DNA of 61,923 bases, taken from the IMG/VR virus record IMGVR_UViG_3300048591_001211, positions 1 through 61,923 of that record; one strand, 5' to 3'. Shown here piece by piece: positions 7,627 through 56,385 of this stretch (position 1 is its first letter; each line of letters starts with the position of its first letter). The translations under genes were made by a program, and so were the position numbers. The notes under the pieces were generated by a model. It ran no database searches and had not been told where the DNA came from. It worked only from the letters and a program-made list of their open reading frames with translations. The stretch comes from a virus (lineage: Duplodnaviria > Caudoviricetes).

Positions 7627-7672
7627 CGAGCCTTGCGGGAGCGACCGATCGGGCGGGCCGCTGGCGGGTGTA

Positions 7673-8890: not shown

Positions 8891-9102
8891 GGTTTCCGTC
8901 TCCGTGGACACTTCCTGACTGTCCGGTGGAATCGGTCGTGACGGTTGTCCGCCCCCATCGGCCGAGACGGTGTTCCTGTTACGTGGACCTGGCAAACTTT
9001 GACGCTCGATCGCGCAGGCCGCGAAGGCCCTCTTTCACCCAGGCTGCCAGGACTGCAAACTTCGCCGTTGCCGCAGACTCTCCTGCTTCGCTGAACGGTG
9101 GC

Positions 9103-12100: not shown

Positions 12101-14988
12101 TTGAGCATCGGTGCGAGGGCCTTCCCTGTATGCGAGGCCTTCACGCGGGCCACCTGCTCGGGCGTGCCCACGGCGACGAGCTCGCCACCGCCGGCGCCCC
12201 CTTCGGGCCCGAGATCGATCACCCAGTCGGCCCGCTTCACGACATCGAGATTGTGCTCGACGACGAGCACGGTGTTCCCCGCTTCGACGAGTCGCTCGAG
12301 CACGGTCAACAACTGCCGCACGTCGGCCATGTGCAGGCCGGTCGTTGGCTCGTCGAGGATGTAGAGCGTGCGCCCCGTCGATCGCTTGGCCAGCTCCCGT
12401 GAGAGTTTCACACGCTGGGCTTCGCCGCCGGACAGCGTCGGTGACGGTTGGCCGAGGTGAAGATAGTCGAGGCCGACATCGTGGAGCGTCTGGAGCTTCT
12501 TCGCGATGTCGGGGGCGTCGGCAAAGAGCTCGAGGGCCTCGGCCACCTCCATGTTCAAAAGCTCGGCGACGTTCTTTCCTTTCCAGCGGACTTCGAGGGT
12601 GTCCTTGGCAAACCGCGCCCCCCCACAGCCATCGCAAGTCACCCACACGTCCGCCAGGAAATCCATGTCGAGGCGAATGGAGCCATTTCCCTCGCACGCC
12701 TCGCATCGGCCGCCCGCCACGTTGAAGCTGAAACGTCCCGCCTTCCAGCCCCGCTTCTTGGCGTCGGGAAGCATCGTGAAGAGATCGCGAATGTCGTCCC
12801 AGAGCTTCACATAGGTGGCCGGGTTGCTTCGCGGTGTCCGCCCGATCGGCGACTGATCGATGACGATCACCTTGTCGAGTGCATCGGCGCCCTTGATGGA
12901 CGCAAACGCCCCCGGACTTGCCACCTCGCTCCCGAGGAGTTTTCGCAGGGCCGGCTCCAGGACATCGCCCACCAGCGAGCTCTTCCCGCTGCCCGAAACG
13001 CCGGTCACGCACACGAGGAGGCCGAGCGGAATCTCCACATCGACGTTCTTGAGATTGTTGTGACGCACCCCCTTCAGGATGAGTTTTGATGCTTGGGGTG
13101 TTCTTCGCTCACGCGGCACCTCGATCGCATCCCGGCCACTCAAGAAGGCCCCGGTTACGCTCGCCGGCGTTTTTGCCACGTCGTCGGGCGTCCCTGCGGC
13201 GACGACCTCACCACCGCGCTTGCCCGGCCCTGGGCCAAAATCGATGACCCAGTCGGCAGCGCGGATCGTCTCCTCGTCATGCTCGACCACGACGACGGTG
13301 TTCCCCTTGTCGCGAAGCTGCTCGAGCGCGCCCAAAAGCTTCGTGTTGTCCCGTGGGTGAAGGCCGATTGACGGCTCGTCGAGCACATAGAGCACACCCG
13401 AGAGCCCCGCGCCGATCTGGGCAGCGAGCCTGATCCGCTGGCTCTCGCCCCCCGAGAGCGTCGGCGCCTTGCGGTCGAGGGCGAGGTAGCCGAGCCCCAC
13501 CTCGTCGAGAAACGCGAGCCTGCCGCGGATTTCCTTAAGGAGCTCCGCGGCGATCACTTCCTGCGTGGGGTCGAGTTTGACCGCCGAGAGAAACGTCCGC
13601 GCGTCGGCAATGGGGAGCGCACAGAGGGCGTCGAGCGACCGTTCGTTCGCCTCGCCTCGCCTCGGCTGCATCGCCGTGGTCGTGATCCGCACCCCCCGCG
13701 CCTGCGGCGAGAGCCTCGCCCCCTTGCAATCATGGCAGGGCGTGACGCGCATCAGTTTCTCGAGCATGCGTCGGATGATCCCGCTTTTGGCGTTGCGCCA
13801 GCGGGCCGCGAGCAGGGCACGGATTCCCTCGAACTTCGTGTTGGCTCCCCGCTCCGCCCGCCCTCGCTTCCACGAAACCTTGATCGTGTCGACACCCGTG
13901 CCGTCGAGCCAAATCTTCCGTTGCGATGGAGAAAGTTCCTGCCACGGCGTATCGAGTAGTGTGCCCGGATCGAGTCCCTTCTTCGCCTCTGCATGCGCTG
14001 CCACGCCGTTCAAAAGCCGACGCATCCACCGCGGCATGTCCCGGAAGCTGCCGAGTACTCCCATCGCCCCTTTGCGAAGTGATTTTTCGGGGTTCGTGAC
14101 GAGCTTGTCGGGGTCGATGCCGTAGATGTCGCCGAGGCCGTCGCAGGTGGGGCACGCGCCTTGCGGGCTATTGAAACTGAAAAGCTGCGGCTCTGGTGTG
14201 TCGTAGCTCACCCCACATGCGGCACAGGCATACCGGCTCGACAGCACAAGGTCGCTGCCGGATTGTCCGCCTTCTTCGGCGACGATGACCTGACCACCGC
14301 CTACTTTGAGGGCGAGCTCCACGGCCTCCGCAAGTCGGCTTCTGGTTTCATCACTTGGCACAAGGCGATCGACCACGACCTCGATCGTGTGTTTGAGAAG
14401 TTTCTCGAGCTTGGGAGGCTCCTCGACGCGGGCGATGGAGCCGTCCACGCGGGCGCGGGTAAAACCCTGCCGCACGAGGTCCGTGAAAAGATCGCGATGT
14501 TCTCCCTTCGCCTCACGGACCAGCGGCGCGAGGATCATGATCCGTTTGCCGCTGCGGGCCTTGAAGATGCGCTCGACGATCTGGTCGCGGGGCTGGGCTT
14601 CGAGGATGGCGTCGCACGTGGGGCAGTGGGCCGTGCCGACCCGTGCGTAGAGCACCCGCAAGAAGTCATGGATCTCCGTCATCGTCGCGACGGTGGAACG
14701 CGGGTTCGTGCCCGCTGACTTCTGCGCGATCGAGATCGACGGCGAAAGCCCCGTCACGGAATCGACATCGGGCCGAGGCAACTGCCCCAAGAACTGCCGG
14801 GCAAACGTCGAGAGGCTCTCGACATACCGCCGCTGCCCTTCGGCGTAGAGGGTGTCGAAGGCGAGGCTCGATTTCCCGGACCCACTCACGCCCGAGAGAC
14901 AGACGAGTCGACCGCGCGGCATCGCCACCGTCACGTCGCGGAGGTTGTGCTCACGGGCACCGCGGACCACGATCGGAGGGACGTGCAT
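9103..14988 (-). CDS. uvrA: Excinuclease ABC subunit A, tandem-fused double UvrA
   Basis: 1961 aa with four Walker A motifs (GVSGSGKS x2, GPSGSGKT x2), four LSGGE signatures, LDEP Walker B motifs, Zn fingers and DTLYAEGQRRYVESLS twice. Confidence 0.97.
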   Translation of the reverse strand: MHVPPIVVRGAREHNLRDVTVAMPRGRLVCLSGVSGSGKSSLAFDTLYAEGQRRYVESLSTFARQFLGQLPRPDVDSVTGLSPSISIAQKSAGTNPRSTVATMTEIHDFLRVLYARVGTAHCPTCDAILEAQPRDQIVERIFKARSGKRIMILAPLVREAKGEHRDLFTDLVRQGFTRARVDGSIARVEEPPKLEKLLKHTIEVVVDRLVPSDETRSRLAEAVELALKVGGGQVIVAEEGGQSGSDLVLSSRYACAACGVSYDTPEPQLFSFNSPQGACPTCDGLGDIYGIDPDKLVTNPEKSLRKGAMGVLGSFRDMPRWMRRLLNGVAAHAEAKKGLDPGTLLDTPWQELSPSQRKIWLDGTGVDTIKVSWKRGRAERGANTKFEGIRALLAARWRNAKSGIIRRMLEKLMRVTPCHDCKGARLSPQARGVRITTTAMQPRRGEANERSLDALCALPIADARTFLSAVKLDPTQEVIAAELLKEIRGRLAFLDEVGLGYLALDRKAPTLSGGESQRIRLAAQIGAGLSGVLYVLDEPSIGLHPRDNTKLLGALEQLRDKGNTVVVVEHDEETIRAADWVIDFGPGPGKRGGEVVAAGTPDDVAKTPASVTGAFLSGRDAIEVPRERRTPQASKLILKGVRHNNLKNVDVEIPLGLLVCVTGVSGSGKSSLVGDVLEPALRKLLGSEVASPGAFASIKGADALDKVIVIDQSPIGRTPRSNPATYVKLWDDIRDLFTMLPDAKKRGWKAGRFSFNVAGGRCEACEGNGSIRLDMDFLADVWVTCDGCGGARFAKDTLEVRWKGKNVAELLNMEVAEALELFADAPDIAKKLQTLHDVGLDYLHLGQPSPTLSGGEAQRVKLSRELAKRSTGRTLYILDEPTTGLHMADVRQLLTVLERLVEAGNTVLVVEHNLDVVKRADWVIDLGPEGGAGGGELVAVGTPEQVARVKASHTGKALAPMLKDAADRATRRTPAVRRKKVADPSKAVAAMLAAVSKASIDPGPPAITVRGAALHNLKHVDADIPRGAMTVCCGPSGSGKTSLAFDTLYAEGQRRYVESLSPYARQFVGQVPKPIFERIEGLAPAVAIEQRSSHGTPRSTVGTITEMYDHFRVLAARIGVMHCPGCGTQVTSQSVDQVVDRLLANPPGTRMLLLAPIELRTGQTPEALFTQLLAAGHVRIRIDGRTMRLDEKPALDRKRKSRLEIVIDRVTAAPGERSRLAQSIEAAFDAGGGTMVVARAIDGVEEPDWPVDIQSRKLACPDCGRGFKPLEPRQFSFNSPLGWCPSCDGLGTRVGVDRKALVRDFSVSLADGALDLWPALASPVSRAMLNAVCKATGLPMEVPLGDLSGLQQRVLFEGTGEKWIEGPGFSFQFKGLEAACEEAARLVVAYRGKVDTVMDEVPCSECGGSRLADVAAAVTLWGRPLDVWCRMPLGRLHDELAAITLDDSGKRIAGDLLRELLARVSFLVDVGLDYLDMARPAGSLSGGEMQRIRLAAQVGSGLTGVLYVLDEPTIGLHPRDTHRLITALGKLRDLGNTVVVVEHDRDVVAAADHALDFGPGSGREGGQIVAHGTPRKLEKLVTSVTGPYLTSRRASDAVLARKLEEGRREPTGWLTIQGIEHRTLRGLDVKFPLGVLTAVTGPSGSGKTSLVLEVLWKALARRLHAAREQPGRFAKLTGLDRIDRVILVDQEPIGVTPGSTPATYTGVFDHIRQLFSKVPEARTRGFTPRTFSFNVAGGRCEACEGLGQRRVEMHFLPDVWVECEHCKGRRYSSETLHAKWHGKNIADVLEMSIGEAAAFFSTVPQVARILETLVDVGLGYITLGQPAPQLSGGEAQRVKLSRELAKQATGKTLYVLDEPTTGLHFTDIEKLLRVLERLVAGGNTVLVVEHNLEVVAAADWVIDMGPEAGAGGGRIVAEGPPEDLVIHAELWERGAGDKHLLRSHTGEALKAFGALEVAPAP

Positions 14989-15108: not shown

Positions 15109-15181
15109 GGGGCGGTAGCTCAACTGGGAGAGCGCGGCGTTCGCAATGCCGAGGTTGGGAGTTCGATCCTCCTCCGCTCCA
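15109..15181 (+). tRNA. tRNA-Ala(CGC)
   Basis: Acceptor stem GGGGCGG/CCGCTCC with the G3:U70 pair, anticodon arm CGGCG-TTCGCAA-TGCCG and T-loop GTTCGATC. CCA is not encoded. Confidence 0.96.
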
Positions 15182-15638: not shown

Positions 15639-16730
15639 ATGTTTGACCATAAGCACTACGTTCCAATTCTCGGCGGCAAGCTCGGGGAGTATGCCGCGCT
15701 GAAAGAGCTTCCGGCGGCAACGAAGGATCGCATCACCCCCCTCATCGAAGTTCCCCCTGTGCCGTGGGACTTTCAGAATGAGCGGCTCGCCCGCACGATC
15801 GACGCTCACCTTTCTGGGACGGCCGCTGCGATCGAGGATGCCTGGGGCGGCGGGGCGCCGATCTTTGTCGACCTGTTCACAGTAGAGGACGATGGCCCAA
15901 TGGCCTCTGGTGACCATCCGCTCGTCCACGTCTTTACAGATGGCCGCGGCCGCGGCCTGGAGCTCGTTCCGGTGACCGGCCTGGATCGAGATGGGGGCTA
16001 TCAGAACGCGGTTAGAGACACTATCGCTATCGATGGCCGAGGTGTATGCGTCAGACTCATGATGCCGGAAATCGCGGAGGACCCAGACTTCATCGCCGAC
16101 CTAGACCAACTGATCGCAGACTTGCGAACCTCTCCGTCTTCTGTGGACTTGATTATCGATGCAGGCCCCATCCCTAAGGACATGCAGTCCGCCTATGCCG
16201 TGATGGCGAGGGGGGCGATTGCAATGGTTCCGCACATTGCTCAGTGGCGAACTCTGACCATCGCCGGTTCAGCGTTTCCGAGGGACCTGAGTGGCTTCGC
16301 GAGAGATGCCGTCAGCCTGTCACCGAGGACCGAATGGGCGATCTGGCGATCGCTTGCCGCGAGACGTGAGCGGCTGGCCCGCATGCCAACGTTTGGAGAC
16401 TACGCCGTCGATGCTCCCGGCCATGACCAGATCGACTTCCGTGTCATCAAAATGAGCGCAAGCATTCGGTACTGCCACGATTCGGACTGGGTGATTGTGA
16501 AGGGCCATGCAATCCACAAAGGCACGTCCAGTCAGCATCCAGCGTTGGCGTCGATCATGCGGGCGAGGCCTGAGTTCTGCGGCGTCGGCTTTAGCTGGGG
16601 GGACGCATTCATTGACGGATGCGCTGGAGGATCCGCGGGGCCTGGGAATGCAACGACTTGGCGACAGGTCGGCGTGAACCATCACATCCAATTTGTCGTG
16701 AACCAGATCGCCAGTTACCCCGGGCTTTGA
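15639..16730 (+). CDS. Beta family protein (P4 beta / sce7725-like)
   Basis: YVPIL..K.GE..AL, PLIE, GSAFP, FGDY and IRY motifs, with a C-terminal G.ATTW...GVNHHI. Confidence 0.8.
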   Translation: MFDHKHYVPILGGKLGEYAALKELPAATKDRITPLIEVPPVPWDFQNERLARTIDAHLSGTAAAIEDAWGGGAPIFVDLFTVEDDGPMASGDHPLVHVFTDGRGRGLELVPVTGLDRDGGYQNAVRDTIAIDGRGVCVRLMMPEIAEDPDFIADLDQLIADLRTSPSSVDLIIDAGPIPKDMQSAYAVMARGAIAMVPHIAQWRTLTIAGSAFPRDLSGFARDAVSLSPRTEWAIWRSLAARRERLARMPTFGDYAVDAPGHDQIDFRVIKMSASIRYCHDSDWVIVKGHAIHKGTSSQHPALASIMRARPEFCGVGFSWGDAFIDGCAGGSAGPGNATTWRQVGVNHHIQFVVNQIASYPGL

Positions 16731-30637: not shown

Positions 30638-31567
30638 ATGATCTGGCCCAGGGTTGTGATTGTGGGGATGATCGCCGCGATGTTGGCGGCTACCGGGCGC
30701 TGCGAAGAGCCCGCCGATGTTGATGTTGCGGAGGTGCTCCGCCTTGGCGACACCGTGCAGCACGTCGATGGAATCCGACAAAACTCGGACGATCTCTTCG
30801 TCGAGGCCATGTCGACTCCCGATGACGACTCCGGGAAGTGGTTCGTTTCAGTCCTCACGATGCAGGCCTGCGCTCCATGTGAGCGGCTCAAGGCCGACTG
30901 GAAGACGAGCCAGCACCTTCTCGCTCTCGCGGACCCCGACAACCCCAAGCGGTCGTGGGCTCACTACCAGGTCTACCCGCGCGAAGATAAGAGCCAGGCC
31001 TTCCGGTTCGAGGGGATCAAGGTCACGAGCTATCCGACCGTGATCGTCCAGCCGCCCAGGAACGGGAAGTACGGCGACCCGAAGACCGTGGTTTACCAGG
31101 GTGGATACGGTGGCGATCCCGAGAAGCTGGCTCGGCAGATCACGGACGCTGTGCGCCGATACGTCTCGCGCGTGGAGTCGGCACCGGACCCGGCTTCGAC
31201 CGCCTTTAAGGGCTACGACCCACCGTGGTCTCCGCCTCCGAAGGTCGATGACGCTGTTCCCGTGGGACCGGTGGTTTTTCCCGACGGCCTGCCGCTGATT
31301 CCACCCCCGTCGCCAATGGCGGGAGTAGCGGGCCTCTCGACGGTGGTGCTGGTCTTGCTCTCGGTGATCGCGACGCTCGCGGTGGTGTTTGTGCTACCGG
31401 CAGGGTTGAGGGCTCTGCAAGCCGGGCGGGAACGTCGGGACCAAGCGAGGCAAGCAGCTCGAGCACGGGACCAAGCATTGGCGCAGCTCCTGAGCCGGCT
31501 GGAGAACGGAAACGTTTCGACGGCCACAGGCTCAGAAACCTCGGCCAAGGTATCGCCAGCGGCCTGA
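30638..31567 (+). CDS. Exported thioredoxin-fold protein with C-terminal membrane anchor
   Basis: Signal peptide, CAPC motif, cis-Pro loop VTSYPT, Pro-rich linker, TM helix and coiled coil. Confidence 0.7.
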   Translation: MIWPRVVIVGMIAAMLAATGRCEEPADVDVAEVLRLGDTVQHVDGIRQNSDDLFVEAMSTPDDDSGKWFVSVLTMQACAPCERLKADWKTSQHLLALADPDNPKRSWAHYQVYPREDKSQAFRFEGIKVTSYPTVIVQPPRNGKYGDPKTVVYQGGYGGDPEKLARQITDAVRRYVSRVESAPDPASTAFKGYDPPWSPPPKVDDAVPVGPVVFPDGLPLIPPPSPMAGVAGLSTVVLVLLSVIATLAVVFVLPAGLRALQAGRERRDQARQAARARDQALAQLLSRLENGNVSTATGSETSAKVSPAA

Positions 31568-31681: not shown

Positions 31682-31861
31682 GTGCCCTCGATGGTCGCCT
31701 ACCTGAGCGATGTGGCTAGGGCCGCTGCGGTCACGTGCTGCGTCGTATGCCTTGCGACATCGTGCGACCGCAGGGAGCCGACTCCAGCCGTTGATGCTCT
31801 GCCGCTCGAGGCGCCTGCCGACGATCCAACCCATTCCGTGCTCGTTCGCGAGGGGGACTGA
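31682..31861 (+). CDS. Small putative lipoprotein (o-spanin-like, 59 aa)
   Basis: Hand-translated: GGAGG RBS, GTG start, hydrophobic stretch ending LATS-C and a Pro-rich mature part. Confidence 0.45.
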   Translation: MPSMVAYLSDVARAAAVTCCVVCLATSCDRREPTPAVDALPLEAPADDPTHSVLVREGD

Positions 31862-32157
31862 TGCCAGCCGCCGACTTCTCCCCGGGCCGGCAGGACGTGG
31901 TCTACCGAACCGGCGACACTCGCACGGTCGAGGTCGATTGGCCGCTTGACCTCACCGGCAGGACGCCGGTGTGCGTGCTCCTGAGCACCGTCACAGGCGA
32001 GTTGATCGACACGCTGACGTCTCAGGTGACAGACGCGTCGGCCGGCAAGATCAACGTGACGTTCCCCGCGACGCTCGTGGTCGGCACGTACGTCTGGGCT
32101 ATGCGGCTCGATGACGATACGACCGGCATCCGCGGCTACGTGGAGGTGACGCCGTGA
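31861..32157 (+). CDS. Small beta-rich virion accessory protein (BppU-N-like)
   Basis: GDT..V.V...DLTG...V.DA..GKI.V......GTY pattern. Confidence 0.5.
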   Translation: MPAADFSPGRQDVVYRTGDTRTVEVDWPLDLTGRTPVCVLLSTVTGELIDTLTSQVTDASAGKINVTFPATLVVGTYVWAMRLDDDTTGIRGYVEVTP

Positions 32158-32384
32158 GCACGTCCATCACCGATCTCCACATCGCGACGGTGGTTCCGAA
32201 GGTCACGGCGCCGAAGGTGACGCCCTCGCTGTCGGCCCCAAAGATCACGCCCACCACGGCGGGTATCGGCATCGAAGGCCCGAAGGGCGACCAGGGCGAG
32301 CCAGCCATCTCATCGCTCACGGTTTCCGGTGGCCTCGTGTCGCCGCTGGTGCTCGAGCTCGTCAGCCAAGTCGGGGAGTCCTGA
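32154..32384 (+). CDS. Small protein with short collagen-like motif
   Basis: PKVT repeats and GPKGDQGEP. Confidence 0.5.
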   Translation: MSTSITDLHIATVVPKVTAPKVTPSLSAPKITPTTAGIGIEGPKGDQGEPAISSLTVSGGLVSPLVLELVSQVGES

Positions 32385-32387
32385 TCC

Positions 32388-33452
32388 ATGCCAACGCCGA
32401 CCACATTCACGACGCGCGTCACGTTCGACCACGTGCGAAACACCGCGGCAGGGTTCACTGCTGACAACCCGGTGCTCGGGTACGGTGTGATCGCGATCGA
32501 GGGCGACGAGGAATCGACGGTCTTCCGTGTCAAGATCGGCGACGGCGTGACGGCGTGGAATGACATGCCATACGCCGGCGGCGACGGCCCTATCGCGATT
32601 GAGGACATCGAAGGGCTCGCGGATGAACTCGCGGCGCTGGCCCCGATCGCCAACCCGACGTTCACGGGGACGGTTTCGGGCGTCACGAAGTCTATGGTGG
32701 GCCTCGGCAACGTCGACAACACGTCGGACGTGAACAAGCCCGTCTCAACCGCCCAGGCCACCGCAGACACGGCCGTCGCGACCGCGGCCGCTGCCGACGC
32801 AACCACGAAAGCAAACGCCGCCCTCGCGGCAGCGATTGATTACACCGACACTGGGCTCGCAACTCACACCCACGGCAACATCAACGCTGACGGCAAGTGG
32901 CAGCCGTTCCTTGATGAGATTCAGCCCGAGGCGGATTTCGTGATGGTGGTCGAGGGCGGTTCGGCCGATCTCAAGGCTCGGTCGTCGATTTCCGCGTCGC
33001 TTGTCGGCGGGCTTTCGACGGTCGCCACGACTGGCGACTACAACGATCTCGACAATCTTCCGTCGCTTTTCTCGGGTGACTACGGCGACCTCGCGAACGT
33101 GCCTTCTACGTTCTCGCCCGCGCCGAAAGTCGTTACCGCCCTCGGCACCATCTCTGGCACCGTGACACCAGACGCCAACGCCCGTGTGGATTACGACCTC
33201 ACGGCCTCCGGCAATATCACGCTCGCGAACCCGTCCGGCACGCCGGTGAACGGGCAGGTCATCTTGTTCCGCGTGACCCAAGGGAGCGGCGGCAGCAAGA
33301 CCGTCACGCTCGGCGGCAGCATCACGATCCCCTCGTCTGCGTCGAGCCCGCTGCCGTGGTCAACCGCCGAAGGCGCGTGCGATTACCTCGCGATCAAGTA
33401 TCACGCCGGTCGCAGCGAGTGGGATGTCGTTTCATTCGTGCCGGGGTACTGA
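32388..33452 (+). CDS. Fibre-like virion protein with Mtd_N-like N-terminal domain
   Basis: NPVL..G.I.IE...KIGDGVTAWNDMPY, VGLGNVDNTSDVNKPVSTAQ and ATTGDYNDL fibre motifs. Confidence 0.75.
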   Translation: MPTPTTFTTRVTFDHVRNTAAGFTADNPVLGYGVIAIEGDEESTVFRVKIGDGVTAWNDMPYAGGDGPIAIEDIEGLADELAALAPIANPTFTGTVSGVTKSMVGLGNVDNTSDVNKPVSTAQATADTAVATAAAADATTKANAALAAAIDYTDTGLATHTHGNINADGKWQPFLDEIQPEADFVMVVEGGSADLKARSSISASLVGGLSTVATTGDYNDLDNLPSLFSGDYGDLANVPSTFSPAPKVVTALGTISGTVTPDANARVDYDLTASGNITLANPSGTPVNGQVILFRVTQGSGGSKTVTLGGSITIPSSASSPLPWSTAEGACDYLAIKYHAGRSEWDVVSFVPGY

Positions 33453-33455
33453 CAA

Positions 33456-34088
33456 ATGGCCACTCTCTACTTCAACGACGCGGAAGAGGACAGCGACGTA
33501 GCCACCCTAGAAAACTGGTGGGAGGACGCTGAATGCACAGTTCAGGCCGACGCGCTTCCGGGTGTCAATGATGACTGCATTTTCCTGGCGAGCGTCTATG
33601 TAAACAGCGGCGATCCGTTCGTGGTCGCGTCAGTTGACATGCAGGTCGAGTGGGGCGAGTTCGCCATCGACGCGACAGCTGGGCTTTTTTCGTTCAGCGG
33701 GGATGGCTGCGGTCCCGCGTTCGGCTTCACTATCAACGGCGACTGTGTGTTCAACGGCGAGGGTGGTGGTGCGTACGGAGCCATCATCAACGGCGACTGT
33801 GAGTTCAGTGGCGAGGGCGGCGTAAACTTCCACACCACCGTCAACGGCGACTGCGTGTTCAGCGGCGAGTTCACCAACAACGTAGGCACGATCAACGGCG
33901 ATTGCTATCTGCTGCATCCGACATCCGCGAATGGCAGCGTCGATCTAATCAACCCTACGTATAACACTGAGGGCTTCGTCAACGGTCGCGTCTTCCTTAT
34001 TCGTGGCTCGAACCTTTACGGCAAACCAACAGAGGGCTTCGTCGTCCCTCGCGGCATCAACGGCTCGTCGATCCTTGGAGTTATGTAG
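33456..34088 (+). CDS. Beta-helix repeat protein
   Basis: Four (I/V)NGDC repeats, three of them followed by xF(N/S)GE. Confidence 0.6.
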   Translation: MATLYFNDAEEDSDVATLENWWEDAECTVQADALPGVNDDCIFLASVYVNSGDPFVVASVDMQVEWGEFAIDATAGLFSFSGDGCGPAFGFTINGDCVFNGEGGGAYGAIINGDCEFSGEGGVNFHTTVNGDCVFSGEFTNNVGTINGDCYLLHPTSANGSVDLINPTYNTEGFVNGRVFLIRGSNLYGKPTEGFVVPRGINGSSILGVM

Positions 34089-34594: not shown

Positions 34595-34915
34595 ATGCGT
34601 TCGCCGGCCGTCTCGAATCACTTCACCGATGCCAACGGCAACCCATCCGGTGGCACCACGTTCGGTCAAGGTTTTGCCATCGGGTGGCAGAACGGTCCGC
34701 TCGGTCGTGGCGAGGAGCGGAAGCAGCCAAACGGGGCGTTCATCGAGGACATCATCGCTGCGGCCAAGGATCGGCTGGAGTTCTACCAGGCGTCCAAGTT
34801 CGCCTGCGAAGCGAACGAGACAGCCATCGATCTCCTGGCTGCGGCCCTCGGTGTGCTGAACGCCCGCACGGCCGATCGCGAGAAGCGTGCCGTCGAGGGC
34901 ACACACGCCCCCTGA
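34595..34915 (+). CDS. Tad1-like anti-defence nucleotide sponge
   Basis: WQNGP...NG.F.EDII....DRL.FYQ...F.CEAN..A......AL..LN.RT.DR..R.VEGT parallels the recalled Tad1 pattern FQKG...DRL..FQ...F..REN..AL...EEAL......R..DR..R.V.GT. Confidence 0.75.
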   Translation: MRSPAVSNHFTDANGNPSGGTTFGQGFAIGWQNGPLGRGEERKQPNGAFIEDIIAAAKDRLEFYQASKFACEANETAIDLLAAALGVLNARTADREKRAVEGTHAP

Positions 34916-34927
34916 TCGCCCAACCAC

Positions 34928-35473
34928 ATGGCCATCGATATCAACATCGACCTCGGTTACGCACTTGCTGCCTGGGTGGTCGCCGACTTCCTCTCGGGTG
35001 TCGTGCATTGGATTGAGGACCGCTACGGTGACCCAGCATGGCCCGTCATCGGCCGTCACGTCATCGAGCCGAACATCCTCCACCATCGGGACCAGATGGC
35101 GTTCACCGCGGGTGGCTACTGGCAACGCAACTGGACCACGCTCGTGCCGGCGGCGGCTGCCGCCGGGATGGCGTGGCTGGCCGGCTCGGCATTCCTGGCG
35201 GTCACGTTCCTCATGCTCTCCCAGGCGAACGAGATCCATGCCTGGGCTCACCAGCGATGCGTGCGCCCGATCCGCGGTCTGCAGCTCATCGGCATTTTCC
35301 AATCACCGGAGCAGCACGCCGATCACCACCGGCGGCCGTTCGACCGGAACTACTGCACCATGAGCGACTGGCTCAACCCGTTGCTATCGCGCGCCGGCTT
35401 CTGGCCCGCCCTCGAGCTGCTGGTGGCGAGGGTCACCGGGCTATCGCCACGACCCGAAAGGCAGGTGGCTTGA
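34928..35473 (+). CDS. CarF/TMEM189/FAD4-family lipid desaturase
   Basis: ADFLSGVVHW.ED, HH, H.WAH and H..HH...NYC...W.N histidine boxes; TM helices. Confidence 0.85.
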   Translation: MAIDINIDLGYALAAWVVADFLSGVVHWIEDRYGDPAWPVIGRHVIEPNILHHRDQMAFTAGGYWQRNWTTLVPAAAAAGMAWLAGSAFLAVTFLMLSQANEIHAWAHQRCVRPIRGLQLIGIFQSPEQHADHHRRPFDRNYCTMSDWLNPLLSRAGFWPALELLVARVTGLSPRPERQVA

Positions 35474-36033
35474 TGCCGCGCAAGCTCCCTTACGTCAGCG
35501 TGCCGAAGCCCCGCCGCCGCCCCAGTGCCGCGGCCCGCGGGTACTGCAGTCGCAAGCATCGGGAGTGGCGGCTCGCTGTCCTGCGACGGGATGAGTGGAC
35601 ATGCCAGGATTGCGGCCGGGTCTGCACTGACAAGGCAGAGGCGCACGCTGACCACGTCAGCCCGATCGTGCAGGGGACTGACTACTGCGAGGACGGGTCC
35701 AGTAGGTACGACGTGCGGAACGGTAAGTGCCGCTGCATCCGATGCCACAGCCGCAAGACGCAAGCCGAGAACGCCGGAGGGAAACGAATTCCGGCCGACC
35801 CCAGGGGGGGCTTCCAAAGTTCCAAAGCCCCCACGAATCCAAACCACCTGCTTGCCGCACGCACGCGACCGGGAGTTTTCGAGGGGGGGGGGTCGAATTC
35901 GCAATCCCCGGGTGAAACGGCGTCTGGGGCCGTGCGGTGGCCCGTCGTTGTGGACCCTGCCATGCCACCCGATCGGCTCCTCGTCGGTGGTGTTTGGATT
36001 GCCCTTGGGGTGCCTGCCGGGGGTGTGGAGTGA
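35473..36033 (+). CDS. HNH endonuclease (packaging-associated)
   Basis: A.ARGY...WR..VL.RD...CQDC...ADH...C..CHSRKT. Confidence 0.85.
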   Translation: MPRKLPYVSVPKPRRRPSAAARGYCSRKHREWRLAVLRRDEWTCQDCGRVCTDKAEAHADHVSPIVQGTDYCEDGSSRYDVRNGKCRCIRCHSRKTQAENAGGKRIPADPRGGFQSSKAPTNPNHLLAARTRPGVFEGGGSNSQSPGETASGAVRWPVVVDPAMPPDRLLVGGVWIALGVPAGGVE

Positions 36034-36602
36034 GTACCGGGACGATCCGAAACCGCGTGGTGAGGCTGGCGAGCGTTCGTGCCGGCGACCTGGTGCCGAA
36101 CCCCAGGAACTGGCGGACGCACCCGGCCGGACAGGCCGCCGCGCTCCGTGGGATCCTCGCCGAGATCGGGTACGCGGACGCCCTGCTCGCGCGGGAGTTG
36201 CCGGATGGTCGGCTGATGCTGATCGACGGTCACCTGCGGGCCGAGACGACACCCGACCTTGAGGTGCCGGTCCTGGTCCTCGACCTGAACGAAGAGGAGG
36301 CTGACAAGCTGCTCCTGTCCCTTGACCCGCTCGCCGCGATGGCGGAGGCGAACGCAGAGGCGATCGGCGAGCTGCTCCGCGAGGTGGAAACAGGCAGCGA
36401 AGGGCTGCAGAAGATGTACGCCGGGATGGCAAAAGACGCTGGCCTTCTCGCCGATGCCGACGCGTCGAGCCCGCAAGAGTCGGACTTTCAATACGAGCAG
36501 CAGTACGGCGTCACCGTGGTGTGTCGCGACGAGAGGCACCAGCAGGAGATCTACGATCGCCTGACGTCCGAGGGGCTGGAGTGCAAGGTGGTGGTCGTAT
36601 GA
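36030..36602 (+). CDS. ParB/Srx N-terminal-like domain protein
   Basis: L.PNPRNWRTH and LIDGHLR motifs; small C-terminal domain YGV.V.C.DE..Q..IY..L..EG..C. Confidence 0.8.
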   Translation: MSTGTIRNRVVRLASVRAGDLVPNPRNWRTHPAGQAAALRGILAEIGYADALLARELPDGRLMLIDGHLRAETTPDLEVPVLVLDLNEEEADKLLLSLDPLAAMAEANAEAIGELLREVETGSEGLQKMYAGMAKDAGLLADADASSPQESDFQYEQQYGVTVVCRDERHQQEIYDRLTSEGLECKVVVV

Positions 36603-37711
36603 AAATCGCCGTCCGCAATCGGTGCTCCGACTTCAACTCGTACCGGGCCGCCCGCGTGAAAAGCCTCTTCAACGCGGAGAGCGGCTGCGACTTCACGCTC
36701 GACGCCGATCTCCCCATAGATGACAGCGATTGGAAACTCGGGCTTGTGGTAGGCCCGTCCGGCTCCGGCAAGACCTCGATCGGAAAGCAGATATTCGGCG
36801 ACGCCGGCGCGGTGTACGACCCGTCGGACTGGCCCGCGGACAAGCCGATCGTTGATGCGATTGCCCCTGGTGGCGACTTCGACGCGGTGACGGGCGCTCT
36901 TGCGTCTGTCGGGCTTGGAAGCGTTCCGGCGTGGTTGCGCCCGTTCCACGTTCTGTCGAACGGCGAGCGCTTTCGGGCGAACCTCGCTCGGCTCGTGTGC
37001 GAGGCACCGCCGAAGGTTGTGGTCGACGAGTTCACCTCGGTCGTGGACAGGCAAATAGCCAGGTTCGGTGCGCTGGCCTTCCAGAAGTCGTGGCGTCGAA
37101 CCGGCGGGAAGTGCGTGCTGCTCTCTTGTCACTACGACGTGATCGATTGGCTGGAGCCGGACTGGGTCTACGACACCTCAAGCGGCCAATACGCCGGGAG
37201 GCGTCTTTGGCGACGGCCAAAGTTCGACCTCGAGATATGGCAGACGGACAAGCGCTACTGGCACCTGTTTGAGCCGCATTACTATCTGAGGCTGCCATCG
37301 ATGATCGCGGCAACGTACTACGTCGGGTTCGTCGACGGGGAGCCCGTGTGCCACCTCGGGGTTTCCCCGAAGCTCGAGGTGGGAGGTATGCGCGCGAGTC
37401 GCATGGTCGTGATGCCCGAGTGGCAAGGGGCCGGCGTCGGTGTTCGCTTCTTGAACGAGGTGTGCCAAATGCAGATCGATGGCCGCGGCCCATACGGCCG
37501 TCGCCCGCGCTGCGTTTTCTTCCATACGTCGCACCCAGGCCTGTGCCACGCACTGCGCAAGTCGCCCGGCTGGAGGCAGGTGAGCGCGGTGCTCGCCGGC
37601 GGGAATAAGGCCAGGAGCCGGAGAAGCATGCAGAAGTCGGGAGCGGTCACTGCCGGTTACGGCGGCCACTTCCGCGCGGTCCAGGGTTTCAAGTATGTCG
37701 GCTGTGCCTAG
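36599..37711 (+). CDS. ABC-type ATPase fused to GNAT (Mom-like) acyltransferase
   Basis: Walker A GPSGSGKT, signature LSNGE, Walker B VVDEF and H-loop SCH; F.PHYY and GNAT motif A R.VV.PEWQGAGVG. Confidence 0.85.
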   Translation: MKIAVRNRCSDFNSYRAARVKSLFNAESGCDFTLDADLPIDDSDWKLGLVVGPSGSGKTSIGKQIFGDAGAVYDPSDWPADKPIVDAIAPGGDFDAVTGALASVGLGSVPAWLRPFHVLSNGERFRANLARLVCEAPPKVVVDEFTSVVDRQIARFGALAFQKSWRRTGGKCVLLSCHYDVIDWLEPDWVYDTSSGQYAGRRLWRRPKFDLEIWQTDKRYWHLFEPHYYLRLPSMIAATYYVGFVDGEPVCHLGVSPKLEVGGMRASRMVVMPEWQGAGVGVRFLNEVCQMQIDGRGPYGRRPRCVFFHTSHPGLCHALRKSPGWRQVSAVLAGGNKARSRRSMQKSGAVTAGYGGHFRAVQGFKYVGCA

Positions 37712-37712
37712 G

Positions 37713-38360
37713 ATGCGCCTCTACATATGCGGCCAGCGTGAGTTTGGCGCACGTGTCCTTCGGCTCGCCGTCGGCATGGGGCACGATGTCGTCGGCTGCT
37801 GCTGCCCGGTCGGAAACTCTAAGGGCGACGGGCCTGACCGCACGCGTGAGGCGGCAGGAGTTTTCGGGGTCCCTTGCATCCCGTCCGGAACGCTGACGCA
37901 CGACAAGGTTCCCGAAGGCGTTGACGCGATCGTCGCCGCGCACTCGCACGACTTCATCGGGCAGCGAACCCGCTACAGGGCGAGGTACGGAGCGTTCGGC
38001 TACCACCCGTCCCTACTCCCCAGGCACAGGGGCCGCGATGCAGTTCGCTGGACCGTGCGCATGCGAGACCCTATCGCCGGAGGATCCATTTACTGGCTGA
38101 ACGAGGTTATGGACGGAGGCCCGATCGCCGCTCAGGAATGGTGCTGGGTGTACGGCGATGACACGCCCGAGCGGCTTTGGAGGGAACGGCTGTTTCCGAT
38201 CGGGCTGTCGCTCATGGAGCGAGTCCTTTCCGACATCCCGCGGCACTTTGAAAACAAGGTCGCGCAGGACGAGAGGGCGGCCACCTTTGAGCCTTCGATG
38301 AGCCCACCGAGGGCATTCCGGCCGGACCTGCTTGGCATCCCGTTTCGTCACGCGTGCTAA
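37713..38360 (+). CDS. Formyltransferase (10-formyl-THF-dependent fold)
   Basis: GQ..FG, YHPSLLPRHRG, MDGGPI and LW...LFP.G motifs. Alternative start at 37695. Confidence 0.85.
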   Translation: MRLYICGQREFGARVLRLAVGMGHDVVGCCCPVGNSKGDGPDRTREAAGVFGVPCIPSGTLTHDKVPEGVDAIVAAHSHDFIGQRTRYRARYGAFGYHPSLLPRHRGRDAVRWTVRMRDPIAGGSIYWLNEVMDGGPIAAQEWCWVYGDDTPERLWRERLFPIGLSLMERVLSDIPRHFENKVAQDERAATFEPSMSPPRAFRPDLLGIPFRHAC

Positions 38361-38371
38361 GGGAGGAACCT

Positions 38372-38875
38372 ATGGGAAAGCGGGGTCCACCGCCAAAGCC
38401 CACGACGCTCAAAATCGCCAGCGGAAACGCGTCGAAGGAGAACCTCGACGACCGTGTGCGGCGCGAGCCTCGCCCGCACGATGGCGACATCGAGCCGCCG
38501 GTGTGGCTGACGGGAGCGGCCCTGGAGAAGTGGGGCGAGATGCTGCCCATCATCCAGGGCATGAAGGTGATGACGTCGGCGGACGTTGACGCCCTGGGTC
38601 GGTACTGCGTGCTTCACGAGATGTACGTGAAGTACCTCGACCAATGCCGTCGCGGCCTCGATGTGCTCGTGCTCCGCGATGCGAACGGGAAGGTCAAGTA
38701 CATGCAGAGCACGCCGGCCGCGGTGATGTTCCAGAAGCTCGGCCAGCAACTTGACCGCCTTGGTCAGCAGTTCGGCCTGACACCTTCTTCTCGCACGGCG
38801 ATCAACGTGGACCACGGGGAGACAGCTGACAGTGTCCGAGCTTGGCTGGACGAGACGACTCTGGACGCCGGATGA
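38372..38875 (+). CDS. terS: Terminase small subunit, P27 family
   Basis: RGP.PKPT.LK...GN, PP.WL...A...W and FGLTPSSR motifs. Confidence 0.9.
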   Translation: MGKRGPPPKPTTLKIASGNASKENLDDRVRREPRPHDGDIEPPVWLTGAALEKWGEMLPIIQGMKVMTSADVDALGRYCVLHEMYVKYLDQCRRGLDVLVLRDANGKVKYMQSTPAAVMFQKLGQQLDRLGQQFGLTPSSRTAINVDHGETADSVRAWLDETTLDAG

Positions 38876-40448
38876 GCAACGACTGCGGCCCGAGTTCCTC
38901 GACGGCTACGTCTGGAACGGCAAGGCGGCTGAGCGGGCGTGCCAATTCATCGAGCGGTTTTGCCGGCTTCCCGGCAAGACTCGGTGGGGCTCGCCTGTTC
39001 GGCTTATGCGGTGGCACGCCGACGAGGTGTTCTACCCTTTGATCGGGTGGGAACGCCCGGACGGCAGGCGACGGTTCCGACGAGGCGGGCTTTTCGTCCC
39101 GAAGAAGAACACGAAGAGCAGTCTCACGAGCTGGCTGACCACGTTCTTCATGACCGCCGACTTCCCGCTCACAGACGTGTTCGGAGCGGCTACGGACCGC
39201 AACCAGGCGAAGATCATTTTCAACATGGTGGCCCGCTCGATCCAGAAGAGCCCCGCGCTTTCTCAGATCCTCACTGTCGTCAAAAGCTCCTCGACGATCG
39301 TCAATAAGGAGCACGGCAACGAGTACCGATGCCTTTCCTCCGACTCGTGGAGGCAGGAAGGCTTGAACGGAAAGGTCGTGATCGACGAGATTCACGCCCA
39401 CCGATCACACGACCTGATCGACGCGCTGGTCTACGCAAATCGAGCCACGCCAAACGGCCTCGTGCTCGGGATATCCACGGCCGGTTCCGAGCGGTCCGGA
39501 GTCGGCTGGCAGTGGTGGCAAGACTGTGAGATCGTGTCGCGTGAGCCTGAGGCAATTCCGAACTTCTACGGGAAAATCTACGCGGCCAAGGATACCGACG
39601 ACTTTAGCGACCCCGCGTTGTGGAGACGCGTCAACCCGTGCATGGGCGTCACGTTCCCGGAGGACGAGTTCGCCGACGACTACAAGGACGCTCTAACCGA
39701 CCCGCGGAAGATGGCCCGCTTCTTGCGGTACAGCCTGAACGTGTGGTGCGCCGCCGACAGCCGCTGGATACCGCCCGAAGAGTGGGCCGCCTGCTACATC
39801 GCCGAGATGCTGCTCGCGGACAAGGCCGAGTGCTGGATCGGCGTGGACCTCGCGTGGTCGGAGGACACGACCGCCGTCGTGGCGATTTTCCCGGACAAGA
39901 AAGGCGGTTTCGACGTGTGGTGCCGCATCTACCTACCAGAGGAATTGGTCGACGATCGCGAGCGACGGGATCGTTGTGAGTACCGACAATGGGCCGAAGA
40001 CGGCTTTGTCATTCTGACGCCTGGCGCCGTCACGGACTACGACTTCATCCGACGCGACATCGAAGCGCTTAACCGCAAATACACCATCAAGATGATCGCG
40101 GTCGACCCACACAACGCGACGCACATCACCAACCAACTTGATGGTGCAGGCCTGCCTGTGAAGAAGTACCCGCAAAGCTACGCGGGGATGAACGCTCCGT
40201 GCCGGTTGATCGAGACGCTGATCTCCAAACGAGCGATCCGACACACGTCTCCAGCGCTAAGCCGGCAAATGGGTAACGTCGCCGTCAAGATGAACGCGGA
40301 AGGTCTCATCCGTCCGCTCAAGCCGAAGCTTAACTCCCCGCTTCGAGTCGACGGACCGCTCGCGATGTGCATGGCCTTCGGTGCTTGGAGCGAAACGGGG
40401 CAGGAGCCGGAGAAGCCCAAGGTTCGCCCGAGGATTCACGCGCTATGA
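38832..40448 (+). CDS. terL: Terminase large subunit (HK97 / 3'-cos type)
   Basis: R.FR...VPKKNTKS Walker A, IDEIH Walker B, ISTAG, GVDLA...D and C-terminal VDG nuclease residues. Confidence 0.95.
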   Translation: MSELGWTRRLWTPDEQRLRPEFLDGYVWNGKAAERACQFIERFCRLPGKTRWGSPVRLMRWHADEVFYPLIGWERPDGRRRFRRGGLFVPKKNTKSSLTSWLTTFFMTADFPLTDVFGAATDRNQAKIIFNMVARSIQKSPALSQILTVVKSSSTIVNKEHGNEYRCLSSDSWRQEGLNGKVVIDEIHAHRSHDLIDALVYANRATPNGLVLGISTAGSERSGVGWQWWQDCEIVSREPEAIPNFYGKIYAAKDTDDFSDPALWRRVNPCMGVTFPEDEFADDYKDALTDPRKMARFLRYSLNVWCAADSRWIPPEEWAACYIAEMLLADKAECWIGVDLAWSEDTTAVVAIFPDKKGGFDVWCRIYLPEELVDDRERRDRCEYRQWAEDGFVILTPGAVTDYDFIRRDIEALNRKYTIKMIAVDPHNATHITNQLDGAGLPVKKYPQSYAGMNAPCRLIETLISKRAIRHTSPALSRQMGNVAVKMNAEGLIRPLKPKLNSPLRVDGPLAMCMAFGAWSETGQEPEKPKVRPRIHAL

Positions 40449-54765: not shown

Positions 54766-55160
54766 ACCAGTGCGTCTACGACCCTGATACTCTGACCTGC
54801 CAGGCGTGCGGTCACGTCGCCCTGCGGCTACCGACGTTTCGCGATTGTCTGCCACCGCCGAAGCCGCGCGAGGAAAAGCCGAAGGGACCGCCCGGCCCTG
54901 GCCACTACCTCACTCGCACGCTCGGATACTTCGGAATCCACTACACGCCCGACTGCCTGTGCAAGCCGATGGCCGAGAAGATGGATCGCCGCGGCCCCGA
55001 TTGGTGCGAGTCGCCCGCCGGCATGAAGGAAATCCTGTCGACCATGAAACGAGAGCACAAGCGGCGATCGAAGCGGCGAGTCATGCCACCGTGGTCAGAC
55101 GCCGTCGCAGCGGGACTCGTGCATGCAGCGTGCGCGCTGGCTCGGAGGGCCGCCGCGTGA
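54762..55160 (+). CDS. Cys-rich hypothetical phage protein
   Basis: CQACG, GPG..L...L...GI...C.C...A..MD..GPDWC. Confidence 0.55.
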   Translation: MNQCVYDPDTLTCQACGHVALRLPTFRDCLPPPKPREEKPKGPPGPGHYLTRTLGYFGIHYTPDCLCKPMAEKMDRRGPDWCESPAGMKEILSTMKREHKRRSKRRVMPPWSDAVAAGLVHAACALARRAAA

Positions 55161-55813
55161 CGACCTTCGACCGCATCATCGTCATCTCTCTGGTGCGTCG
55201 GCCTGACCGGCTGACCGCGTTCAGGACTCGCCTCGGCGCCGCGTGGCCCGACGGGCTGAGCCGCCTCGAGTTCTTTCCGGCGGTCGACGGAACGGTCTGC
55301 CCGCCGCCGGATTGGTGGAGAGAAACGCCAGGGGCCTACGGATGCTGGAGATCGCACCAGCGCGTACTCGAAGAGTGCCTATCACTCGGATCGGGCAACG
55401 TGCTGATCTTCGAAGACGATGCGAGCTTCTGCGACTGTTTCGAGTTGCGGCTGGCTTCGCTCATGGGAATGGTGCCGTCGGACTGGGGCCAGGTGTACCT
55501 CGGCGGCCAGCACCTGCGGCAATACCCACCGGAGCCGGTGAACAACCTCGTGGTACGTGGTCGCAACGTAAACCGGACCCACGCATACGCCGTGCGGGGC
55601 GGTGAGCGGATGCGAGAGCTCTACCAGTGGCTTCATGCCGGCGAGCACTGGAAGGGCAAGCACCACATCGACCACCACTACGGACGGCTCCACAAGGAAG
55701 GATGGCCTGCCTACGCCCCGCGCGATTGGCTCTGCGGCCAATCGGCCGGGACATCGGACGTGGCCGCGAGGAGGCGAGACCCAGAGCGCTGGTGGCCAGC
55801 ACGGAGCCGATAG
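55157..55813 (+). CDS. Glycosyltransferase family 25
   Basis: VISL.RR.DR, AVDG, GC..SH, LIFEDDA and THAY motifs. Confidence 0.85.
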   Translation: MTTFDRIIVISLVRRPDRLTAFRTRLGAAWPDGLSRLEFFPAVDGTVCPPPDWWRETPGAYGCWRSHQRVLEECLSLGSGNVLIFEDDASFCDCFELRLASLMGMVPSDWGQVYLGGQHLRQYPPEPVNNLVVRGRNVNRTHAYAVRGGERMRELYQWLHAGEHWKGKHHIDHHYGRLHKEGWPAYAPRDWLCGQSAGTSDVAARRRDPERWWPARSR

Positions 55814-56370
55814 ACATGCTTGCCGTTCCAAGCGAAGAGCAGCTCGGGGCTGTAGCGGCGGAGGGGCTCGCGCTCGCCGTGGAGTGGAGCGAAGCGCCAG
55901 CGTGCATCGAGTCTCCTGGGTTCGCTTTCCTGCCCGGCGCAGTTGCAAACGACCAGGTGAGCCCACGGCTTGGCCGCGAAGAAGCGGTCGAGCCAGGCAA
56001 CGATCACATCGTCGGGCCAGTGTTGGAGGACGTCTTTCATCCAGTAGAGGTCTGCCATCGGGATGCGGCGAACGTCGGAGAGGTCATCGACGGCGAATCG
56101 CATGTGCGAGAACCGCTGGCGGTTTCGTTCGATCACGGTGGCGACGGCATCCAGGCCGAGGTAGGCGGTTCGTCCTCCGTGGATCACCGAGGGCATCCAC
56201 CGGCAATCGCCGCACCCGAGGTCTACCATCGAAAGAGCGGCATTCCGCCTGAGGTATGTATTGAGCCACTTCACGAGCGACCGGCAGAAGTCAACCGCGC
56301 TACCTGGTCCGCTCCCGCCGGTCCATGCGTCGTTGGCATAGATCTCGCCGAAGACAGTCGCAGCGTCCAT
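55711..56370 (-). CDS. Class I SAM-dependent methyltransferase
   Basis: F..IY....W...SG.GS, VDLGCGD.W, YLGLD and KDVLQH motifs. Confidence 0.85.
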   Translation of the reverse strand: MDAATVFGEIYANDAWTGGSGPGSAVDFCRSLVKWLNTYLRRNAALSMVDLGCGDCRWMPSVIHGGRTAYLGLDAVATVIERNRQRFSHMRFAVDDLSDVRRIPMADLYWMKDVLQHWPDDVIVAWLDRFFAAKPWAHLVVCNCAGQESEPRRLDARWRFAPLHGEREPLRRYSPELLFAWNGKHVYRLRAGHQRSGSRLLAATSDVPADWPQSQSRGA

Positions 56371-56385
56371 GCTCCGCTCCATTAC

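Follow-up and report, generated by a model that had tools for sequence, protein, structure and literature searches.

A short-form PF10520 lipid desaturase-family gene as an accessory gene of a Pirellulales prophage and other tailed phages

Introduction

Why should a tailed phage carry, just ahead of its packaging genes, a gene of a membrane lipid desaturase family? The question is raised by the IMG/VR record IMGVR_UViG_3300048591_001211 (Duplodnaviria; Caudoviricetes), whose 61,923 nucleotides are called the window below. Its open reading frame (ORF) at positions 34928-35473 encodes a member of PF10520, the family of CarF, PEDS1 (TMEM189) and plant FAD4. We find that this gene is a phage accessory (moron-like) gene: it lies within a phage, recurs on several unrelated phage backbones at different positions, and stands outside the core modules. 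Its product keeps the eight histidines of the family and, judged by its sequence, is no equivalent of CarF/PEDS1. With a probability of roughly 0.62, the gene encodes a working short-form PF10520 di-iron lipid desaturase of a temperate phage, made with the late genes and with a specificity other than that of PEDS1.

To our knowledge, members of the CarF/PEDS1/FAD4 family carry out just two known reactions, the formation of the plasmalogen vinyl ether and the trans-delta-3 desaturation of phosphatidylglycerol. We know of no function for the bacterial PF10520 branch that lacks the ninth histidine of CarF, and the window protein falls in this branch.

A PF10520 protein with eight conserved histidines

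34928-35473, + strand: desaturase gene; ATG start, 181 amino acids, short-form PF10520 (CarF/PEDS1/FAD4 family), predicted integral-membrane di-iron enzyme

The product of this gene matches PF10520 (Lipid_desat) over profile positions 1-173 of 175 in an hmmscan search of Pfam (E 1.4e-42, 146.1 bits, cut-off 26.4), and a six-frame Pfam search gave the same result. The second Pfam match, FA_hydroxylase (PF04116), lies under its cut-off of 31 (E 3.9e-5, 24.5 bits). No PHROG v4 family was found for the protein at E <= 0.01, and a sequence search of the PDB returned no match at E <= 10.

The original prediction of a lipid desaturase of this family with intact histidine boxes is borne out by the alignments. 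H27, H52, H53, H104, H108, H130 and H133 show no substitution among 98 relatives of 39-78% identity, and H134 is kept in at least 90% of them; the protein has nine histidines, and the remaining one, H44, is not conserved. D31, N49 and other polar residues are also invariant in these relatives. The retention of eight histidines across such divergent sequences points to selection on catalysis. The same eight columns hold histidine in all eight sequences of the Leptospirae class and all 17 other rows of a second alignment (described below). A holin-like or purely structural membrane role was considered and rejected as the leading explanation, given the invariance of the histidines, D31, N49 and the other polar residues over the same range of identity.

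Location inside a Pirellulales prophage

The record is linear, with a CheckV completeness of 51%, and its first 15 kb are host DNA encoding a 2514-residue fn3-rich protein, a BBP7-like porin and a 1961-residue double UvrA. A close relative of the host (G133) has a counterpart of the porin-like protein at 86% identity, and matches to this protein occur in 139 of 201 sampled genomes of the order to which the isolate Pirellulaceae bacterium SH501 belongs, which places the host in the Pirellulales (Planctomycetota). At the junction of host and phage genes lies a tRNA-Ala gene, probably the integration site and left end of the prophage; between 15109 and 16730 no recognised integrase family was matched. 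From 15.6 kb the gene order runs from phrog_9159 through a RecE-like exonuclease, an ATPase, a methyltransferase and a primosomal protein to RusA. Genes without assigned function, including fibre-like ones, follow, and then the Tad1-like, desaturase, HNH, ParB-like, phrog_11143, formyltransferase and TerS genes. The element is a temperate tailed phage, present as a prophage beside tRNA-Ala in a Pirellulales chromosome. Its features around the desaturase gene are as follows.

15109-15181, + strand: tRNA-Ala(cgc), at the junction of the host genes (82-14988) and the first phage-family gene
15639-16730: phrog_9159, 363 amino acids, first phage-family gene
34595-34915, + strand: Tad1-like gene (phrog_2428), 106 amino acids, TGA at 34913-34915
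35473-36033, + strand: HNH endonuclease frame, with the HNH domain at residues 11-118
35937-38360, + strand: ParB-like (phrog_620/498), phrog_11143 (ABC-ATPase-like) and formyltransferase (phrog_9240, PF00551) genes, the interval from HNH to TerS
38354-40448, + strand: TerS (phrog_83) and TerL (phrog_9), the terminase subunits
3' of TerL to about 51.4 kb, + strand: portal, protease, capsid, connectors and tape measure, the packaging/late block

Only 12 nucleotides separate the TGA of the Tad1-like gene from the desaturase ATG at 34928, and the desaturase TGA (35471-35473) shares one nucleotide with the ATG of the HNH frame at 35473, forming TGATG. The downstream frame matches phrog_589 HNH endonuclease (E 5.3e-19; the Pfam HNH model gives 20.6 bits, cut-off 21.4), which confirms the predicted coupling to an HNH gene. 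RecE, RusA and methyltransferase genes lie 5' of the desaturase gene and HNH, TerS, TerL, portal, protease, capsid and tape measure genes lie 3' of it, and all likely genes between 28.5 and 55 kb are on the + strand. Since phage genes flank it on both sides, the gene belongs to the phage and not to flanking host DNA; its place in the phage operon had been predicted, and we do observe it there, co-directional with the packaging and structural block.

It might still be asked whether host DNA was wrongly included in the record or the assembly is chimeric, given that its left end holds roughly 15 kb of host sequence and that its completeness is limited. We consider this barely credible: the gene is about 20 kb inside the phage part with phage-family genes on either side, the order desaturase-HNH-terminase recurs in other, independent contigs as well as in the complete genome of an isolate, and the identical protein is found on 8 contigs, the longest of 168 kb.

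Differences from CarF/PEDS1

A review (PMC9131029) provides the residues by which a plasmanylethanolamine desaturase can be recognised. Eight histidines are present in all family homologues and are essential in CarF. A ninth (CarF H113, mouse H131) is also needed; it is present in animals, myxobacteria and Leptospira and absent in plants, which usually have arginine there, and in Alphaproteobacteria. PEDS1 further requires D100 and F118 (mouse numbering). According to the same review, plant and alphaproteobacterial homologues without the ninth histidine, a Bradyrhizobium protein among them, fail to replace CarF.

As a reference we took eight full-length homologues from the class of a Leptospiraceae metagenome-assembled genome (MAG); of 41 genomes searched in this class, 19 gave a match. 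The alignment combined these eight with the window protein and 16 further sequences. Exactly nine columns hold histidine in all eight Leptospirae-class rows. The ninth of these is Gly62 in the window protein and is never histidine in the 17 other rows, which come from phages, planctomycetes and Alphaproteobacteria; the residues found there in relatives are G, Q, K, C, N, S and L. At offsets -13 and -31 from this column the Leptospirae rows have the Phe and Asp that the mouse numbering predicts. The window protein keeps the Asp as Asp31 and has Asn49 in place of the Phe (mouse F118), in a column that is Phe in 8/8 Leptospirae-class rows and Asn in 15 of the 17 non-Leptospirae rows, the window included. 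A feature of CarF/PEDS1 is a topology of four transmembrane helices with the N-terminus in the cytoplasm. The start of the window protein lies some 60-90 residues further in than that of the Leptospirae-class proteins, whose first hydrophobic segment it does not have.

Could it nevertheless be a true plasmanylethanolamine desaturase, converting host alkyl-ether lipids into plasmalogens (vinyl ethers)? The only NCBIfam model matched is the equivalog NF045946 for this very enzyme (E 8.7e-27), NCBI names close relatives as CarF family proteins, and the Asp equivalent to mouse D100 is retained. Against this stand a score of 94.2 bits where the equivalog cut-off is 500, with coverage of model positions 63-236 of 269 only, the absence of the ninth histidine, the replacement of the essential Phe by an Asn that is invariant in the 98 relatives, and the failure of homologues without the ninth histidine to complement carF (PMC9131029). 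We regard this alternative as very improbable, and the label "CarF/TMEM189-type" of the original prediction is not supported if it is read in this sense.

Compared with CarF/PEDS1 of Myxococcus xanthus, Leptospira and animals, the window protein thus shares the PF10520 domain, the eight histidines, the conserved Asp and a predicted helical membrane architecture with the histidines presumably on one face. It differs in being phage-borne and about 90 residues shorter, in Gly62 and Asn49, in lacking the N-terminal hydrophobic segment and in scoring far under the equivalog cut-off. With plant FAD4, the trans-delta-3 16:1 phosphatidylglycerol desaturase, it shares the domain and the absence of the PEDS1-specific histidine; the plant protein does not replace CarF (PMC9131029). 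The plant residue, usually Arg according to that review, differs from the Gly62 of the window and from the variable residue of its clade. Closest among cellular proteins are the alphaproteobacterial homologues (the Bradyrhizobium protein and those of Hyphomonadaceae), the nearest cellular sister in our tree, which have the motifs HW.EDRY, N..HH, NE.H...H and H..HH in common with the window protein and likewise no ninth histidine; those found here are chromosomal genes in ordinary cellular neighbourhoods, whereas the window clade is almost wholly viral.

Relatives in other tailed phages

The gene is not a lone viral case. A word-indexed search returned 99 proteins of 40-78% identity, nearly all of 160-200 residues, which their sources name "ubiquitin-conjugating enzyme E2 variant" (JGI) or "fatty acid desaturase CarF family protein" (NCBI, Pirellulaceae). 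An exhaustive phmmer search of 1.84 billion cluster representatives gave 1791 matches at E <= 1e-3 and 907 at E <= 1e-10, and 44 clusters (50% identity) at E <= 1e-30. Relatives of 47-71% identity occur at 62 IMG/VR loci, and further viral examples come from prophages in isolate genomes and two GenBank phage records. One of these is Erythrobacter phage vB_EliS-L02, where a "hypothetical protein" of 41.7% identity (UIS25202.1; OL955261.1, 2337-2873) is encoded between PhoH and the portal gene. The phage is described as lytic (PMC9127768); its paper lists 14 auxiliary metabolic genes without the PF10520 homologue and does not contain the words "desaturase" or "lipid". The other record is an unannotated 595-kb uncultured phage with a protein of 29% identity. 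In the ESM Atlas, three PF10520 clusters have viruses as 50-61% of their labelled members or Uroviricota as the commonest phylum.

To compare neighbourhoods, ten representative viral loci were annotated by PHROGs (77 of 148 ORFs, a selection by length and strand), and Pfam served for eight genome loci (71 of 105 ORFs). We distinguish five or more settings of the desaturase gene, in all of which it points the same way as the late genes.

Directly 5' of HNH-TerS (L043, L073, L076) or 5' of TerS/TerL (L041, L038, L075), the arrangement of the window
Between head/decoration and connector/tail genes: L055, L050, L037
Shortly 3' of a lambda-type portal gene: L118, the second SH501 copy
In the structural operon of a Mu-like prophage of Novosphingobium naphthalenivorans, with a virion-morphogenesis gene on one side and gp37 on the other: L086
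Between PhoH and the portal gene: L106, the lytic Erythrobacter phage
Window subclade, 3' of a homologue of window gene 30638-31567: L002/L003
Window subclade, 3' of an exonuclease or metallophosphatase: L036, L065
Window subclade, between two HNH genes: L004

In L002/L003, the closest relatives, the 3.3 kb that separate the homologue of window gene 30638-31567 (u30638) from the desaturase gene are missing. The TerL proteins of other carriers are 26-28% identical to that of the window, which shows that these carriers are different phages. The homologues in an Aureliella MAG (L068) and in Hyphomonas (L077, L084) have the neighbours of ordinary cellular genes. In the Aureliella MAG (L068:8936-11317), the chromosomal-looking homologue adjoins a gene for a 794-residue leucine-rich repeat protein ending in an AhpC/TSA (peroxiredoxin/thioredoxin-like) domain, a neighbour that recalls the link of plant FAD4 with a peroxiredoxin.

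A quick IQ-TREE phylogeny, supported by the Shimodaira-Hasegawa approximate likelihood ratio test only, was built from 67 distinct domain sequences and rooted on the eight Leptospirae-class sequences; the partial rows L063, L089, L090 and L094 were dropped and identical rows merged. A Planctomycete-associated clade of 44 rows (support 87) comprises 31 viral sequences, 3 prophage sequences, 9 unclassified MAG contigs and 1 chromosomal-looking sequence. Nested within it, the window subclade (20 rows, support 97, starred in the tree) contains 16 viral rows and 4 MAG contigs. The chromosomal genes of Hyphomonadaceae form neighbouring clades.

Rarity in host-order genomes

Queried with the window desaturase, 6 of the 201 sampled Pirellulales genomes gave a match at E <= 1e-3, three of them short and weak. 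Copies of at least 48% identity occur only in SH501 (G002), as its two prophage copies, and G133 has no homologue at E <= 1e-3. Because most sampled relatives of the host are without the gene, the phage would probably add a lipid species to its host rather than boost an existing step. This sets it apart from the cyanophage vFAD enzymes. Those are also phage-borne histidine-box membrane lipid desaturases regarded as auxiliary metabolic genes, and they belong to the DesC-like delta-9 family with three histidine boxes (HXXXHH/HXXXXH) and copy a universal host enzyme (PMC5776448); the window PF10520 gene is without a counterpart in most sampled host-order genomes.

SH501 additionally has a host-type PF10520 copy (L119; 189 amino acids, 34% identity, 178 bits to Pfam). 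On this chromosome (L119:7743-12607), genes for a diacylglycerol kinase-like protein, the PF10520 protein, a 409-residue FA_hydroxylase-domain protein, an esterase and an extracytoplasmic function sigma factor stand together. These lipid-looking neighbours of the host-type gene fit a lipid role for PF10520 in this phylum.

A protease gene paired with the desaturase in the sister subclade

The sister subclade of the window group (21 rows, support 90) shows a second recurring feature. Immediately 5' of the desaturase gene, at a distance of -3 to 589 base pairs, lies a gene for a putative secreted and membrane-anchored protease of 367-446 residues. The N-terminus of this protein has a signal-like hydrophobic segment, its C-terminus has a hydrophobic anchor, and it contains a trypsin-like domain (PF13365, E about 1e-8). 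The gene is present in every row of this subclade with enough upstream sequence, whatever the surrounding module: at 24 of the 62 viral loci, at 6 of 27 genome-contig loci and beside the second SH501 copy.

Loci with the partner protease: L037-L038, L040-L060, L062, L069, L071, L073-L076, L096/L118 (e.g. L073:6760-7989, L055:8624-9925)

When three of these proteases (L073, L055, L043) were searched by tblastn against the window and all loci, none was found in the window or its subclade. The pair has the look of a mobile unit of two genes that would act at the cell envelope. In a Pirellulaceae prophage with the pair (L076:3412-5346), a 645-residue protein with a GDSL lipase/acylhydrolase domain is encoded between TerS and TerL, a second lipid-active accessory gene.

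Predicted structure and chemistry

The AlphaFold2 model built from a 98-sequence alignment is all-helical and of high confidence (mean predicted local distance difference test score 94.6, predicted template modelling score 0.89), and a window-based hydropathy scan found hydrophobic stretches at residues 1-29 and 72-100. Foldseek returned no PDB match at E <= 0.001. With VIA-align against 48,161 PDB chains, the di-metal membrane hydroxylase domain of Scs7p ranks first and second (4zr0/4zr1): for 4zr0_B the Z score is 6.4, with a root-mean-square deviation of 4.1 Å over 148 aligned residues, and the next unrelated chain has Z 4.1. The match would fit the membrane di-iron superfamily, but a Z of 6.4 can be reached by chance between helical bundles, and as evidence for the fold we take it to be weak. 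Although this sphingolipid alpha-hydroxylase domain is the best solved-structure match, it is 10% identical to the window protein and belongs to a hydroxylase with a cytochrome b5 fusion. In BFVD the model matches a giant-virus "Lipid desaturase domain" protein (E 1.5e-5, template modelling score 0.63) and a second, unnamed entry (E 8.3e-5), and no phage protein.

These comparisons bear on whether an active di-iron enzyme might carry out another oxidative chemistry, for example hydroxylation of a lipid chain or of some other membrane isoprenoid or lipid. Desaturases and hydroxylases of this superfamily share the histidine-box site; some relatives carry both Pfam labels, the window protein has the secondary PF04116 match, its best structural match is a hydroxylase, and the host-type homologue of SH501 adjoins a gene for an FA_hydroxylase protein. 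The full-length PF10520 match of 146 bits, as opposed to 24.5 bits for PF04116, argues the other way, as does the fact that the characterised PF10520 branches, PEDS1 and FAD4, are both desaturases (PMC9131029). On balance we hold a chemistry other than desaturation to be unlikely.

Proposed role in the infected cell

We propose that the phages probably rework the membrane lipids of their hosts with the PF10520 enzyme. The desaturase would be produced alongside the late proteins. Its hydrophobic helices (about residues 9-29 and 72-100) would seat it in the cytoplasmic membrane of the host, leaving the eight histidines on the cytoplasmic side. Drawing electrons from redox carriers of the host and using O2, it would put a double bond into a hydrocarbon chain of a host glycerolipid. 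As two PEDS1-specific determinants are replaced, the substrate or the position of the bond would be unlike that of CarF/PEDS1. All these steps, and any benefit to the phage, are inferences, the use of O2 and electrons being drawn from what is known of the family. The original suggestion that such remodelling might aid lysis or counter membrane-acting defences has the same standing.

The same enzyme may instead serve lysogenic conversion, expressed from the resting prophage and altering the membrane of the lysogen (phage exclusion, tolerance of cold or oxidative stress) rather than acting late in the lytic cycle. The window does hold an integrated prophage, with its tRNA-Ala junction and host flank, and isolate SH501 has prophage copies; the interval between replication and packaging genes is variable, as the 3.3 kb absent in L002/L003 illustrate. 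Yet the gene is tied to its neighbours by the 12-nucleotide gap and the 1-nucleotide overlap, with no promoter-like or terminator-like site above shuffled sequence around it, a homologue is present in a phage described as lytic (PMC9127768), and in several lineages the gene is embedded in structural operons. A role in the resting lysogen therefore appears distinctly less probable to us than production with the late genes.

Several points weigh against a late-made lipid desaturase. Its late timing is deduced from gene order, and the scan of 31.5-38.9 kb found 0 promoter-like sites (0.6 in shuffles) and 5 terminator-like sites (4.2 in shuffles), with a sigma-70 model that may not suit the phylum. 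No redox partner was recognised among the annotated genes of the window. The only homologues without the ninth histidine to have been tested, from Alphaproteobacteria and plants, fail to replace CarF (PMC9131029), the Foldseek search was negative, and the leading VIA-align match is both a hydroxylase and within chance range. The cellular rows of the tree were recruited by two motifs from the phage-like clade, so that cellular diversity is under-sampled there, and the 201 Pirellulales genomes are a sample that includes incomplete assemblies.

A broader picture can be sketched tentatively, and we would sooner bet against it than for it. Tailed phages of Planctomycetes and, separately, of Alphaproteobacteria may each keep their own lineage of a minimal eight-histidine PF10520 enzyme for a late-expressed lipid modification that most hosts cannot make, and in the sister lineage the protease may be firmly joined to it in a mobile two-gene "envelope-remodelling" cassette that has travelled among the packaging, head and portal regions. 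If this were true, phage exit, assembly or superinfection control would include a step not recognised so far, a change in the chemistry of membrane lipids, and the phage enzyme would represent a third catalytic specificity in the CarF/FAD4 family.

Significance for phage accessory genes

The enzyme family and the DesC-like phage desaturases were known before. We found no description of phage or virus PF10520 genes in the literature searched, which left most subscription journals and supplements outside its reach, and databases already hold automatically named phage proteins of this family. The branch without the ninth histidine has a large phage-borne part, as the 62 IMG/VR loci and the 44 clusters at E <= 1e-30 show. 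Phage copies keep the catalytic histidines, and most sampled host-order genomes are without the family. Accessory lipid-desaturase genes of phages now extend beyond the DesC-like enzymes of cyanophages. The assignment also corrects the database names "ubiquitin-conjugating enzyme E2 variant" and "CarF family", which would mislead metabolic inference from viromes. Two tractable systems are at hand, the isolate SH501, which bears a host-type copy besides the two in prophages, and the Erythrobacter phage, which is lytic and in culture. They bring within reach the questions which lipid the phage enzyme makes and why phages need it late in infection.

Neighbouring genes and further observations

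The gene immediately upstream had been predicted to be Tad1-like, and this holds. In a phmmer search of the PDB, residues 32-104 of its product match Thoeris anti-defense 1 chains (7uav, 8kbb, 8kbe, 8kbg, 8kbh; E 7e-6 to 1e-5), and the protein matches phrog_2428 (E 2.2e-18). The same residues also match PhiKZ gp184 (E about 7e-6). By its sequence the product is a probable nucleotide-signal sponge. The suggestion that the desaturase works together with this sponge fares less well: by tblastn (E <= 1e-5), the window Tad1-like protein was found at 0 of the 62 viral desaturase loci, many of which are short, so that this count speaks for the loci and not for whole phages. The Tad1-like gene is a neighbour of the desaturase gene and not a conserved partner.

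Further 5', at 31861-34088 (+ strand), lie fibre-like and collagen-like ORFs with G-x-x repeats and a gene for a 210-residue protein with repeated "NGDC" units, placed 5' of the packaging genes and distant from the tail module. They belong to the 3.3 kb that L002/L003 lack. On the other side of the desaturase gene, the 3' part of the HNH frame contains a G7 tract (35804-35810) and a G10 tract (35883-35892), past the HNH domain and in the region that overlaps the ORF starting at 35937; the proximity of a cos site, a slippery tract or a spot prone to assembly error could account for them. The phrog_11143 protein encoded between HNH and TerS is well conserved (E 2.6e-146) and has an ABC-ATPase-like motif, and together with the ParB-like protein and the formyltransferase it may form a DNA- or nucleotide-modification module. 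At 54806-57806 (+ strand), 3' of the tail genes, weak PHROG matches (E about 1e-6) point to a glucosyltransferase and GtrB-like O-antigen conversion proteins, possibly encoded by surface-modifying lysogenic-conversion genes.

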